A DNA stretch of 64,000 bases from contig DAHVRZ010000002.1 of the NCBI GenBank assembly GCA_027324805.1, forward strand, positions 85,658 to 149,657, given 5' to 3'. The stretch comes from Candidatus Parcubacteria bacterium (lineage in GTDB: Bacteria; Patescibacteriota; Minisyncoccia; UBA6257; 2-01-FULL-56-20). Below are positions 38,798 through 41,308 of the stretch, in pieces (within the stretch, counting starts at the first letter, position 1; every line of letters begins with the position of its first letter). The notes beneath the pieces are model-generated. The model had not been told where the DNA came from and searched no databases. It saw only the letters and a program-made list of their open reading frames with translations. The translations under genes were made by a program, and so were the position numbers.

Positions 38798-41308
38798 CTA
38801 TTTTCGGCCTTCGATCGAATGTCCGCCGAACCGATTGCGGAGCGCCGAGAGCACTTTGCCGACGTAGCTTGGCGAATGCTTGGAGCGGACACGGAATTTG
38901 AACGAATCCTCGATGACGGGCGTGGGCACTTTCAATTTTTTCCCCGTCTTTATCGTCCACTCCCCTTCGCCGGTGTAGTTCACCGATCCCGATATCTTTT
39001 TGAGGTCTTGACCGTATATCTGATACGCCTCTTCAAGCCATTTCACAAGATGCGACTCTATAACGGAGCCGTTATTGTACACATTCGCCACTTTCTCAAG
39101 ATCGAGTTTGAATTTCGACTTCTTCATAATCGCAAATCCTTCGGCGATCGACTGCATCATGCCGTACTCGATGCCGTTGTGGACCATCTTTACGAAATGG
39201 CCCGCGCCCGCCTCGCCGAAATATGCGTAACCGCCCATTACGGAGAGGTCACGGAAGAGCGGCTCGAGATATGCGTAGGCCTTTTTGTCGCCGCCGATCA
39301 TAAGCGAACCGCCGTGGCGCGCGCCTTCGGGTCCACCGGAAAATCCGACATCCACAAGATAGATGCCGCGCTTCTTGAGAAGCTTCGCGCGGCGAACGGT
39401 ATCCTCATAGTATGCGTTCGCGGCATCGATCACGATATCGCCTTTTTTCAAATGGTGCACGATGCTCTCCGGGCCGCCTTTGCCGTTCCTGCCGAACAGC
39501 AGTTCATCATTCGCCTTGCCGGCGGTGATCATGAGCCACACGACACGCCCAAATCCCCCCGAAGGCGCCTTCGGCAGCTTTTCGATCATCTCGCCGAGCG
39601 TCGGCGCCGTTTCAATATCCTCCTTCGCGATCTCTTCGACCGGCTCCTGCGAACGGTTCGATGCAATTACCGTCCAACCCTTATCGTTAAGCTGGCGCAC
39701 GATATTCGTTCCCATCTTGCCGAGTCCGAAAACGCCGATCATCTTCGGCAATGTTGCCATGGTTCCGTTCGACGATTTGCCCGCGCTCCCAATGTGTGCA
39801 CCGTTCGTCGTCTCGTCAATCACCTGCGCCTCCGCCGCGATCGCGCGGCTGTCGGGAGTGTAGCGGTGAAGCGGAACGGCACCGGCGCGCCACGCATCCA
39901 CGATCGGATCGATGAACCGCCACATATTGATGATCTCGCCGCTTGAGACAAAAAGCGTCTGGTCACCCATGATGCAGTCGAGTAAGAGCTTCGCATATTC
40001 CTCGGTATATTGTCCGACGCGCGGATCGTGCTGGTGCGTGAATTCGAATTTCCGCTCCTCCGCCACCATTCCGAATCCCGGCTTCTTCGCCCAGAAATGG
40101 ATCGTGATCCCCTCGAACGGGTCCTGATGGAACACGATGCGGTCGCGGCAATGGGGGCCGCCGGACGGACAGAGGCACGGTTCCGAATGCCTGAAGACCA
40201 CCTCGATCTCCGTTATCTCTTTATGTTCCGCCTTTTCCGCAGGCGACATAAGCCGTTTACCGGCCTCCATAATGATCGGCACACCCTCCCACGCAGGATG
40301 CGAAAGATAGCCGCGAATACGGAAATACGTCTCCGTCTGCGAATCGGCACGCACCCCTTTTATGGAGTGGTAACCCTCGTACTGCGCACGGAACGTCGAG
40401 GTTTTGATTTCCTTTGCCGTCGGCTTGCGCAGCATCCCGATAAGCTCGGCGCGTCGCGAACGCACCGCATCGGCGCTCCAATCGCGCGGGCGATCCATCG
40501 TCGTAAGCGCAAGCATCTGAAGAAGGTGGTTCTGGCCCACATCACGGAGTGCGCCGACGTCATCGTAGAACGCGCCACGCTCTTCCACTCCGATGTTCTC
40601 CAATTCCCGGATATAGATCTTCTCGATCAGCTCCTTTCCCCAGTTTTTTTCAAAAAGGTTGTTGTAGAAACGGAATGCGAGGATATTCTGAAACGTCTCC
40701 TTGGCGAGGTAATGGTCGATGCGGTAGATCTGGCCCTCCCGGAATATTTCGGCGAGGCGGGCGTCGAGCACTTTTACGGTTCGTTCGTCGCTGCCGAACG
40801 GCTTCTCGATGATGATGCGCGTCCATCCATCCAATACATCGGCGTTCCCGCGCCCCTTCGGAACGCATTCCTCGTTCAATCCCGCCTTTTTGAAATTCAC
40901 CAGGATGAGGTCGTAGAACTGCGGCGGGACGGAAAGATAGAACAGCTTGTTCGAACACATTCCGAACGCATCGTCCGCCGCGCGAAGACGATCAGCAAGC
41001 GAGTGGTAATCCTCGGGCGCGTCGAACATGAGCTTATGATACGTGACTCTCGCGAGGAACCGCGCGACGGACGCCGCCGGCGCATCGGGTGCTTTCACAC
41101 TGAGAATGGCCTCGATATGGCGTTTGAGATCTTCATCCGTCCAGTCGCGCCGCGAAACCCCGACGATCCGGAAATTCTCCGCAAGCGCTCCTTTTTCCTG
41201 GAGGCTGAAGAGCGATGGTACGATCTTTTTTGCCATCAAATCCCCCGTCGCGCCGAAAATAACGAAATGCGTGGGCACGCGCGAATGCCCGTTCATAATA
41301 GTTTCCAT
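38798..41308 (-). CDS. zwf-gnd: Fused glucose-6-phosphate 1-dehydrogenase (N-term, about 500 aa) and short-type 6-phosphogluconate dehydrogenase (C-term, about 310 aa)
   Basis: G6PD motifs are FVIFGATGDLMAKK and RIDHYLAKE. The linker ...NGTMATLPK is followed by the 6PGDH NAD-binding start MIGVFGLGKMGTNIV and by ...VKMVHNGIEYGMMQ. The whole is a single uninterrupted 836-aa ORF. Confidence 0.8.
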   Translation of the reverse strand: METIMNGHSRVPTHFVIFGATGDLMAKKIVPSLFSLQEKGALAENFRIVGVSRRDWTDEDLKRHIEAILSVKAPDAPAASVARFLARVTYHKLMFDAPEDYHSLADRLRAADDAFGMCSNKLFYLSVPPQFYDLILVNFKKAGLNEECVPKGRGNADVLDGWTRIIIEKPFGSDERTVKVLDARLAEIFREGQIYRIDHYLAKETFQNILAFRFYNNLFEKNWGKELIEKIYIRELENIGVEERGAFYDDVGALRDVGQNHLLQMLALTTMDRPRDWSADAVRSRRAELIGMLRKPTAKEIKTSTFRAQYEGYHSIKGVRADSQTETYFRIRGYLSHPAWEGVPIIMEAGKRLMSPAEKAEHKEITEIEVVFRHSEPCLCPSGGPHCRDRIVFHQDPFEGITIHFWAKKPGFGMVAEERKFEFTHQHDPRVGQYTEEYAKLLLDCIMGDQTLFVSSGEIINMWRFIDPIVDAWRAGAVPLHRYTPDSRAIAAEAQVIDETTNGAHIGSAGKSSNGTMATLPKMIGVFGLGKMGTNIVRQLNDKGWTVIASNRSQEPVEEIAKEDIETAPTLGEMIEKLPKAPSGGFGRVVWLMITAGKANDELLFGRNGKGGPESIVHHLKKGDIVIDAANAYYEDTVRRAKLLKKRGIYLVDVGFSGGPEGARHGGSLMIGGDKKAYAYLEPLFRDLSVMGGYAYFGEAGAGHFVKMVHNGIEYGMMQSIAEGFAIMKKSKFKLDLEKVANVYNNGSVIESHLVKWLEEAYQIYGQDLKKISGSVNYTGEGEWTIKTGKKLKVPTPVIEDSFKFRVRSKHSPSYVGKVLSALRNRFGGHSIEGRK

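Follow-up and report, generated by a model that had tools for sequence, protein, structure and literature searches.

A patescibacterial family of proteins joining glucose-6-phosphate dehydrogenase to a short-type 6-phosphogluconate dehydrogenase, with no canonical lactonase gene nearby

Introduction

[quoted passage not shown] A single minus-strand open reading frame (ORF) from one of these bacteria, read in a first-pass annotation as a fusion of the enzymes for steps 1 and 3 of the oxidative branch, raises the questions of whether the fusion is real, whether both halves are likely to be active, and how the intervening lactone-opening step might be accomplished. These are addressed here using the window, i.e. 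the whole 64-kb stretch of DNA that was analysed (Table 1), together with homologs and gene neighborhoods from public databases.

Table 1. Coordinates of the fusion gene, its modules and its immediate neighbors in the window
Feature	Position	Strand	Remarks
PGI/PMI-family sugar-phosphate isomerase, 323 aa	37753..38724	-	PF10432 bact-PGI_C, E 6e-42
zwf-gnd fusion gene	38798..41308	-	836 aa, ATG start; Pfam and NCBIfam domains
Short-type 6PGDH module, residues 523-836	38801..39742	-	TIGR00872 and NF007161 above cut-off
Inter-domain linker, residues 500-522	39743..39811	-	unconserved, predicted disordered
G6PD module, residues 13-499	39812..41272	-	TIGR00871 above cut-off
OmpR-type response regulator	41343..42047	-	Response_reg and Trans_reg_C

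Results and discussion

Domain architecture and predicted active sites

Pfam searches recovered four domains in the fused protein, in the order G6PD_N (residues 16-208), G6PD_C (210-499), NAD_binding_2 (524-689) and 6PGD (703-812), and gave no match to Glucosamine_iso (PF01182) within its 836 residues; NCBIfam has no model covering both halves. Public gene calls take the second ATG (41296) as the start, which results in a protein of 832 aa. Both modules are full-length and exceed their NCBIfam cut-offs, and the initial reading of a G6PD joined to a short-type 6PGDH in a single ORF is thereby upheld. The N-terminal module matches TIGR00871 (zwf) with 414.3 bits (cut-off 400.6) over residues 13-499 and model positions 3-478 of 486, and its Pfam domains PF00479 (G6PD_N) and PF02781 (G6PD_C) are recovered with E-values of 1.4e-53 and 6.6e-69 respectively. 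It displays the signature motifs GATGDL (residues 19-24), EKPFG (168-172) and RIDHYLAKE (196-204) as well as H261, and the residues R53, K169, D198, H199, K203, D256 and H261 are conserved in all 159 fused homologs. We take the roles of these motifs, namely the GxxGDLx of the dinucleotide fold, EKPxG, RIDHYLGKE and the catalytic histidine in QNHxxQ, to be those known from the Leuconostoc mesenteroides and human G6PDs. His261 is predicted to be the catalytic residue of the module, and Arg53 to be a binding residue for the 2'-phosphate of NADP+.

The C-terminal module, a region of 314 aa that opens with MIGVFGLGKMGTNIV (residues 523-537), matches TIGR00872 (gnd_rel) with 318.9 bits (cut-off 297.2; model positions 3-296 of 299) and NF007161 with 323.2 bits (cut-off 271), both matches spanning residues 524-833 (summarized as 523-833 for the 6PGDH). 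Only positions 1-116 of the 290 in the PF00393 profile are covered, and the long-type models TIGR00873 and NF006765 score 202-211 bits against cut-offs of 413-427. Judged by its sequence, the module is a 6PGDH of the short type (~300 aa), which lacks the duplicated C-terminal half of the 470-aa long type. Its conserved motifs comprise GLGKMG (residues 528-533), N551-R552-S553, S657-G658-G659, K707/H710/N711/E714, R806 and R824/H830, which, apart from S553, are found in 154-159 of the 159 fused homologs; S657, K707, H710, N711, E714 and R806 occur in 159/159 and R824 and H830 in 158/159. The module has counterparts of K183, E190, R287, R446 and H452 of sheep 6PGDH, which we take to be the base/acid or 6-phosphogluconate (6PG)-binding residues of the long enzymes, and its catalytic Lys and Glu and its 6PG-binding Ser, Asn, His and Arg presumably have the roles assigned from the sheep protein. 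With catalytic and substrate-binding residues identical in 158-159 of the 159 fused proteins, the predicted active sites are both intact, in support of the proposal that steps 1 and 3 are encoded as one polypeptide. N551 is found in 154 and R552 in 158 of these proteins, and position 553 is occupied by Ser in 107 and by Thr in 30. This Asn-Arg-Ser/Thr signature after strand beta-2 suggests a preference for NADP+; the NCBIfam names differ in this respect, with TIGR00872 being named NAD+-dependent and NF007161 NADP-dependent.

Linker and predicted structure

The linker is the sole unconserved stretch of the alignment of 159 homologs, with a column conservation of 0.13 vs 0.5-0.96 in the domains, and its length ranges from 13 to 43 aa (median 26, counted between the alignment columns of D486 and I524). 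In the AF2 model of the fusion (mean pLDDT 87) both modules mostly exceed a pLDDT of 85, while residues 501-518 fall below 50, forming the only long segment with such low values. The pTM of 0.62 lends no confidence to the inter-domain geometry, and channelling between the active sites is therefore unsupported; none of the solved structures searched spans both halves. Met523, where the 6PGDH had been proposed to start, is not a general feature of the family: the aligned residue is Glu in 133/159 homologs and no Met occurs in the 16 alignment columns preceding GLGKMG in 139/159, indicating that the 6PGDH half generally has no separate ATG start.

Spread of the family and its annotation

Searches for other fused examples recovered the same in-frame junction in at least 159 database proteins and at least 80 metagenome loci, the latter each identified by one tblastn match running across the junction, with identities reaching down to ~34%. 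The best 120 matches from a search of 5.8 billion proteins all possess the four domains, at 54-100% identity to the fusion. At 90% identity the family splits into at least 120 clusters, and among the representatives of 50%-identity clusters at least 13 are full-length fused proteins and 6 are fragments spanning the junction, these again extending to ~34% identity. All fused members with a named organism belong to the Patescibacteria (Paceibacterota, Minisyncoccia and Woesebacteria). Carriers of the fusion include the Woesebacteria genome that encodes QQR63809.1 and the contigs ERZ25039454 contig_7304 (913,682 bp) and ERZ25039512 contig_54891 (898,885 bp). The database labels of the fused proteins are either 'G6PD' or '6PGDH', never bifunctional. 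Thus, the fusion is common in Patescibacteria yet mislabelled in databases, and of the prospect that it might prove to be both widespread and annotated already, only the first part holds.

The first-pass annotation had also not recognized a G6PD-6PGDH fusion as described. Taken as a claim of absence, this is incorrect for eukaryotes: a G6PDH/6PGDH fusion was reported in 2008 and 2011 from the diatom Phaeodactylum tricornutum (PMC2173943, PMC3148214; protein 54663, cited by Stover et al. as XP_002183714.1), and the concept of such a fusion is therefore not new. For bacteria, a literature search with thin coverage of subscription journals turned up no publication describing one, and the bacterial family appears to be undescribed. 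As in the bacterial proteins, steps 1 and 3 are predicted to reside on one diatom polypeptide with a short spacer, the diatom lactonase being encoded elsewhere (PMC2173943, PMC3148214). However, the diatom case is eukaryotic and was reported in a single species, with a disputed gene model and possible post-translational cleavage, whereas the patescibacterial fusion numbers hundreds of bacterial members and incorporates the short (~300 aa) 6PGDH. No protein longer than 900 aa with both halves was present among the best 150 representatives, suggesting that the diatom and bacterial fusions are probably independent events. A covalent link between G6PD and a different oxidative-branch enzyme also exists in the G6PD::6PGL fusions, i.e. 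Plasmodium GluPho, the Giardia/Trichomonas G6PD-6PGL and metazoan H6PD, which have arisen repeatedly (PMC3148214). In these the partner is the Glucosamine_iso-type lactonase of step 2, whereas the patescibacterial partner catalyzes, by prediction, step 3 and has no Glucosamine_iso domain.

Unfused relatives and the origin of the fusion

Unfused versions of the two genes are found in three patescibacterial clusters, namely L004 from Moraniibacteriota (zwf-12 nt-gnd-12 nt-pgl), L165 from Paceibacterota (zwf-gnd-pgl-PGI-ROK) and L167, where zwf and gnd overlap in ATGA. Like the fusion, these have zwf followed by a short gnd, often with a PGI gene in the cluster; unlike it, they have the two genes in separate frames (with a 12-nt gap, a 101-nt gap or the ATGA overlap) and contain a canonical pgl. 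The gnd of L004 further differs in bearing an Asp (NAD-type) signature in place of the Asn-Arg of the fused proteins. All fused 6PGDH halves group with five stand-alone proteins, two of them labelled patescibacterial, in one clade with a bootstrap of 98/100, which includes the gnd of L004 (L165 and L167 were left out of that tree). In the neighbor-joining tree of the G6PD halves the support for a fused clade is 0/100, with stand-alone G6PDs of the same phylum intermixed with the fused ones, and a single origin of the fusion is therefore not proven. A separate zwf-gnd-pgl cluster is the likely precursor, and the fusion would most likely have arisen when the stop codon separating zwf from gnd was lost in such an ancestral cluster, where the two genes were neighbors and translationally coupled. 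The coexistence of fused, translationally coupled and separate versions in one phylum offers a natural experiment on the fusion of steps 1 and 3 with step 2 skipped.

A contrast set, obtained by scanning GTDB genomes with 6PGDH-wide peptide patterns, consists mostly of non-CPR gnd-zwf operons and is not suited to counting fusions. The gnd(short)-zwf-pgl and gnd-zwf-opcA operons from Acidobacteriota, Chloroflexota, Actinomycetota, Chlorobi, Pseudomonas and others resemble the fusion in having the same two families adjacent and co-directional, but have gnd upstream of zwf and in a separate frame, and their products show identities of ~33-37% to the G6PD half and 31-45% to the 6PGDH half. Among the matches listed, zwf is directly followed by pgl in at least 18 of these loci and by opcA in at least 6.

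Alternative explanations

Related bacteria have unfused zwf and gnd genes separated by 12 nt or overlapping by 4 nt, and a single error, in the form of a lost stop codon or frameshift in a metagenome-assembled genome, could therefore mimic a fusion. However, the shared junction comes from proteins in the NCBI, ENA, JGI and Logan assemblies as well as the 80 metagenome loci, an identical protein (832 aa, from a call shorter by 4 codons) is present on two contigs, in NCBI and ENA, and the junction DNA is in-frame and ordinary, being devoid of any homopolymer run. An assembly or sequencing artefact is thus barely conceivable and effectively refuted already: the ORF is a genuine fusion. A further concern is the identity of the C-terminal module, which also yields weak matches to models of HIBADH, tartronate semialdehyde reductase and L-threonate dehydrogenase, enzymes that share a superfamily with short 6PGDH-like proteins; a beta-hydroxyacid dehydrogenase of the 3-hydroxyisobutyrate or tartronate-semialdehyde reductase type would not perform step 3. 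These matches reach only 25-65 bits against cut-offs of 290-450, whereas the cut-offs of both short-6PGDH models are surpassed by matches running end to end, the best solved relatives (6xeq/10gw, 8ihe, 6vpb and 4e21) are all named 6PGDH, and the near-invariance of the base/acid and 6PG-binding residues noted above also speaks against this assignment, which we consider very unlikely. Somewhat less remote, but still improbable, is that the fusion is made and yet works as two enzymes, through cleavage of the linker after translation or a separate 6PGDH start, as might be suggested by the disordered linker and the Met at position 523 of the window protein. This Met is unconserved, with no Shine-Dalgarno-like sequence preceding it, and the fused state has been maintained across lineages down to ~34% identity, which argues that the covalent link itself has been selected.

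The lactonase step

The observation that no 6-phosphogluconolactonase is encoded nearby was corroborated by profile searches: the window ORFs scanned contain no lactonase domain (Pfam Glucosamine_iso or Lactonase), and a profile built for the canonical, Glucosamine_iso-type 6PGL gave no match over the full 64 kb of the window. Across the window and 86 other patescibacterial loci (a total of 0.9 Mb, with flanks of up to 10 kb per fused locus) this pgl profile matched only the unfused L004, while the same profile gave 42 matches in non-CPR zwf loci among the matches listed. Likewise, none of the best 120 of 534 relatives of a patescibacterial pgl lies on a contig whose length equals that of a fusion-bearing contig, four of which measure 0.8-0.9 Mb. 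Pfam scans of other immediate downstream genes identified AbiEii, rhomboid, cyclase, beta-CASP, RpiB and other domains, with no lactonase among them. An alpha/beta hydrolase gene overlapping the fusion stop in locus L084 was considered as a substitute lactonase, but it recurs in only 2 of the 55 informative loci and has no more than 29% identity to the distant alpha/beta hydrolase of the window, and was rejected as a general explanation.

Canonical pgl is missing from every fused locus and flank examined. In the three unfused patescibacterial operons inspected it is never more than ~3.5 kb away from zwf-gnd, immediately following gnd in two of them, and in many other bacteria it adjoins zwf. 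This distribution, together with the lack of a length match to fusion-bearing contigs among those best 120 pgl relatives, is what would be expected if the fusion replaced the lactonase, with the bifunctional enzyme itself speeding or channelling the opening of the lactone and permitting the loss of pgl. We view this as rather unlikely, although less so than the preceding alternatives: the search extended to flanks of up to 10 kb and the 64-kb window, the fused proteins have no extra domain or conserved insertion besides an unconserved linker, the AF2 interface is without confidence, and spontaneous hydrolysis is a sufficient explanation. An in vitro cascade of G6PDH followed by 6PGDH has no lactonase among its listed enzymes (PMC11021460), which shows that an enzymatic lactone step is dispensable in principle. 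A broader scenario, to which we give the same low credence, is that the fusion constitutes a lactonase-free oxidative branch, in which zwf and gnd fused and pgl was then totally lost, the tethered enzyme either tolerating spontaneous opening of the lactone or promoting or channelling it. If true, this would represent a one-protein NADPH generator, fed by a co-transcribed PGI/PMI, in ultra-small episymbiotic bacteria.

Proposed function and gene neighborhood

Taken together, the fusion is very probably a genuine bifunctional oxidative pentose-phosphate enzyme. Its N-terminal G6PD would convert glucose-6-phosphate to 6-phosphoglucono-delta-lactone with production of NADPH, the lactone would be hydrolyzed to 6-phosphogluconate either spontaneously or by a hydrolase encoded elsewhere than nearby, and the C-terminal short-type 6PGDH would oxidatively decarboxylate the latter to ribulose-5-phosphate and CO2 with production of a second NADPH. 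The two modules are likely to fold independently, tethered by the flexible linker of 13-43 residues. G6PDs occur as dimers or tetramers and short 6PGDHs are likewise oligomeric, and the fusion could therefore build assemblies of higher order. The probable benefit of this arrangement is the obligatory 1:1 co-expression and co-localization of both NADPH-producing steps in a very small genome. Many Patescibacteria would accordingly possess a compact oxidative branch hidden by single-function annotations, since metabolic reconstructions that go by the product name alone will register G6PD or 6PGDH but not both; correct annotation alters the inferred NADPH supply, and hence redox-defence capacity, of these bacteria. 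As a ready-made single-polypeptide module with a predicted yield of two NADPH per glucose-6-phosphate, the fusion may also serve in biocatalysis.

The PGI/PMI gene, which usually follows the fusion, would supply glucose-6-phosphate from fructose-6-phosphate. An archaeal-type PGI/PMI gene had been placed directly upstream; a gene of the PGI/PMI family is indeed adjacent, but lies downstream on the coding strand, as it does in most fused loci. It starts 73 nt after the fusion stop, behind a Shine-Dalgarno-like AGAGGA, and no terminator-like site was found between the two genes on the minus strand; they are probably co-transcribed. Its product scores 143.5 bits against PF10432 (cut-off 24.5), but 202.1 against TIGR02128 (cut-off 213.9) and 215.1 against NF006423 (cut-off 254), which places its family membership at the Pfam level. 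The same gene call is present in locus L001, and tblastn searches with defined neighbor proteins showed 32 of the 55 informative fused loci to have a homolog no further than 3.4 kb away and on the same strand. On the other side, the stop codon of the response regulator gene lies 34 nt upstream of the fusion start, an arrangement shared by locus L002, and 22 fused loci have a homolog upstream, which in 21 of them is on the same strand. The response regulator is thus a conserved neighbor, with at most a putative functional link to the fusion. The window also encodes a SOD and a peroxiredoxin.

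Domain architecture and spread of the G6PD-6PGDH fusion family

Pfam and NCBIfam profiles for both enzymes matched the single 836-aa ORF in the ORF listing, with all three NCBIfam scores above their cut-offs (see table), and the DNA at the junction is ordinary and in frame, confirming the fused reading frame proposed in the first-pass annotation. No NCBIfam model covers both halves and no solved structure spans them, the nearest solved relatives being the G6PD 9emm and the short 6PGDHs 6xeq/10gw, 8ihe, 6vpb and 4e21. An identical protein, with its start called four codons later, is present on two contigs (NCBI, ENA). 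Other fused examples, which that annotation had proposed to look for, were recovered in several searches: the best 120 matches among 5.8 billion proteins all share the same four-domain architecture (780-845 aa, 54-100% identity), and among 1.84 billion 50%-identity cluster representatives, searched exhaustively with HMMER, there were 13 full-length fused proteins and six junction-spanning fragments, with identities among them descending to about 34%. A metagenome scan that used a junction-spanning alignment yielded 245 relatives, and in all of the best 80 of these one tblastn match runs across the linker. The fusion is no artefact.

It had further been supposed that such a fusion was undescribed. 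G6PD-lactonase fusions are well documented (PMC3148214). The very same enzyme pair as in the window was reported fused in the diatom Phaeodactylum tricornutum in 2008 (PMC2173943) and again in 2011, with the gene model doubted (PMC3148214); the concept is therefore not new. For a bacterial family no publication was found, in a literature coverage lacking most subscription journals, and Parcubacteria have been described as keeping only the non-oxidative branch (PMC4508563). The bacterial family is real, widespread and under-annotated. Where the sources name its members, the labels are Candidatus Paceibacterota, Minisyncoccia, Patescibacteria group, Microgenomates group or Candidatus Woesebacteria; one of these members, QQR63809.1, sits on a contig of 928,688 bp. 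As product name they bear 'glucose-6-phosphate dehydrogenase' in some cases and '6-phosphogluconate dehydrogenase' in others, and no name combines the two. The small gene set of the window, including an ECF sigma factor, MacB-type ABC transporters, GH130 genes and FtsW, is in keeping with a patescibacterial organism. A fused gene with an 809-aa stop-to-stop frame also occurs on a contig labelled 'uncultured Gammaproteobacteria bacterium' (L003, CAYIQM010000003.1), its product being about 45-47% identical to that of the window; either mis-binning of a patescibacterial contig or a transfer may account for it. Other G6PD architectures among the cluster representatives include a 6PGDH NAD-binding domain ahead of G6PD, in reverse order and without the 6PGDH C-terminal domain (P0239, 606 aa), G6PD followed by about 400 C-terminal residues without a Pfam match (P0138, 868 aa) and a partial 6PGL domain ahead of G6PD (P0216, 652 aa).

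Features of the fusion protein, the window and compared loci
Feature	Position	Strand	Remarks
Fusion gene	38798..41308	-	
G6PD_N (Pfam)	residues 16-208		
G6PD_C (Pfam)	residues 210-499		
NAD_binding_2 (Pfam)	residues 524-689		
6PGD (Pfam)	residues 703-812		first 116 profile positions only
TIGR00871 (zwf)	residues 13-499		414.3 bits, cut-off 400.6
TIGR00872 (short-type 6PGDH)	residues 524-833		318.9, cut-off 297.2
NF007161 (short-type 6PGDH)	residues 524-833		323.2, cut-off 271
OmpR-type response regulator	41343..42047	-	34-nt gap before fusion gene, coding-strand order
PGI/PMI-family gene	37753..38724	-	73-nt gap after fusion gene; AGAGGA just before ATG
112-aa protein	37368..37706	-	corresponds to locus L001 3746-4084
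Fe/Mn superoxide dismutase	55094..55741	-	
AhpC/TSA peroxiredoxin	5763..6452	-	
DsbD-like membrane protein	6397..7278	-	
DsbA/thioredoxin-like protein	665..1414	+	
rpoB-rpoC fusion	17163..23915	-	2250 aa
C-5 cytosine DNA methyltransferase	10647..11636	-	
Two adjacent GH130 phosphorylase-family genes	about 28800..30660	-	
gnd of L004	11423-12331		
Alpha/beta hydrolase of L084	12418-13086		222 aa; overlaps fusion stop codon by 4 nt
RpiB of L147	9221-9673		

Linker, predicted structure and conserved residues

Across an alignment of 159 fused proteins the domain columns are 0.5-0.96 conserved, as against 0.13 at residues 501-520, and the linker, taken as the distance from the D486 column to the I524 column, spans 13 to 43 residues (median 26). 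An AlphaFold2 model built from an 85-sequence alignment has a mean pLDDT of 87.2, with residues 501-518 as the sole long segment below 50; its pTM of 0.62 fits two well-folded modules whose mutual orientation is not confidently fixed. K169, D198, H199, K203, D256, H261 and R53 of the G6PD half and S657, K707, H710, N711, E714 and R806 of the 6PGDH half are invariant across all 159 proteins, and R824 and H830 are kept in 158; their roles we take to be those of the counterparts in L. mesenteroides and human G6PD and sheep 6PGDH. N551 (154/159) and R552 (158/159) form an Asn-Arg pair of the kind typical of NADP+-specific enzymes, and judging from these sequence features the fusion enzyme is probably NADP+-dependent. 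The Met earlier taken as the start of the 6PGDH half is replaced by Glu in 133/159 homologues; Met is absent from the 16 alignment columns before GLGKMG in 139/159, and therefore the 6PGDH half generally lacks an ATG start of its own.

Gene neighborhood

Read along the coding strand, the response regulator comes first, then the fusion gene and then the PGI/PMI gene, and therefore the isomerase lies downstream and not, as previously stated, upstream; no minus-strand terminator-like site was found between these three genes. The same series, continued further downstream by PEBP and sigma-70 genes, is seen again on a 913-kb contig in a relative whose fusion protein is 64% identical. Of the 55 fused loci with sufficient flanking sequence, 32 have a PGI/PMI homologue no more than 3.4 kb away on the same strand (downstream in 30), while the fusion gene is followed by a glutamate-dehydrogenase-family gene in five, an alpha/beta hydrolase in two and RpiB in four (L147, L153, L158 and L160, on the same strand). 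RpiB, ribose-5-phosphate isomerase B, catalyzes the pathway step next after ribulose-5-phosphate. The 112-aa protein without a Pfam match, encoded between the PGI/PMI and PEBP genes, has homologues in the same position at 16 fused loci.

Origin of the fusion and the lactonase step

In about 60 bacteria outside Patescibacteria (non-CPR) zwf is preceded by a short gnd with a reading frame of its own, and pgl (18 loci) or opcA (six loci) often follows, whereas patescibacterial operons have the opposite, zwf-gnd order, which is the order this fusion needs. A neighbor-joining tree unites all fused 6PGDH halves and five stand-alone proteins in one clade (support 98/100); of the latter, L004 and L007 are labelled patescibacterial and the sources give no phylum for L024, P0182 and P0242. 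The G6PD halves are intermixed with stand-alone G6PDs without support. The simplest reading, the number of events aside, is that within Patescibacteria a zwf-gnd pair with coupled translation lost the stop codon between its two genes. Stand-alone short gnds bear Asp-type or Asn-Arg-type signatures, whereas fused proteins show Asn-Arg almost without exception, a hint that fusion goes together with NADP+ use. The L004 gnd has Phe-Asp-Pro-Asp as against Asn-Arg-Ser in the fused proteins.

The absence of a 6-phosphogluconolactonase near the fusion, noted from the sequence alone, held up. No Glucosamine_iso or Lactonase domain was detected in the window ORFs scanned with Pfam, and a pgl profile made from 18 non-CPR ORFs, each the next one after zwf (four were scanned and confirmed as PF01182), gave 42 matches in 75 non-CPR loci and none in the 64-kb window or the fused loci (0.9 Mb in total). 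Its sole match among the patescibacterial loci searched is in L004, an unfused Moraniibacteriota locus. Canonical pgl is present in Patescibacteria, and in L004 and two of three pgl loci looked up it clusters with zwf and gnd as individual genes arranged in the fusion's order: zwf, gnd and pgl with 12 nt between successive genes in L004, zwf-gnd-pgl-PGI-ROK in L165, and in L167 zwf and gnd overlapping in ATGA, then transketolase, pgl, transaldolase and PGI/PMI. In the third (L166, Uhrbacteria) pgl adjoins transaldolase, with zwf and gnd absent within 6 kb. None of the best 120 of 534 pgl relatives lies on a contig equal in length to a fusion-bearing one, which is suggestive only. The alpha/beta hydrolase overlapping the fusion stop codon in L084, an arrangement found again in L125, could be an alternative lactonase in these two genomes but not a general one.

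Functional implications

The predicted bifunctional enzyme would convert each G6P to ribulose-5-phosphate and CO2 with two NADPH, the lactone opening spontaneously or by an unlinked hydrolase. The enzyme list of an in-vitro cascade of G6PDH followed by 6PGDH includes no lactonase (PMC11021460), and therefore the enzymatic lactone step is dispensable in principle. The PGI/PMI, presumed co-transcribed, would let fructose-6-phosphate enter the branch. What is gained by joining the two enzymes covalently is most likely a fixed stoichiometry together with co-localisation; substrate channelling is speculative. The oxidative-stress and thiol-redox functions of the window (see table) would be consumers of the NADPH.

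The window also encodes a cytosine methyltransferase, GH130 genes and a second fusion, in which RpoB (Rpb2) domains occupy residues 22-1044 and RpoC (Rpb1) domains continue in the same frame at 1056-2173; Helicobacter and Wolbachia also have rpoB-rpoC fusions.
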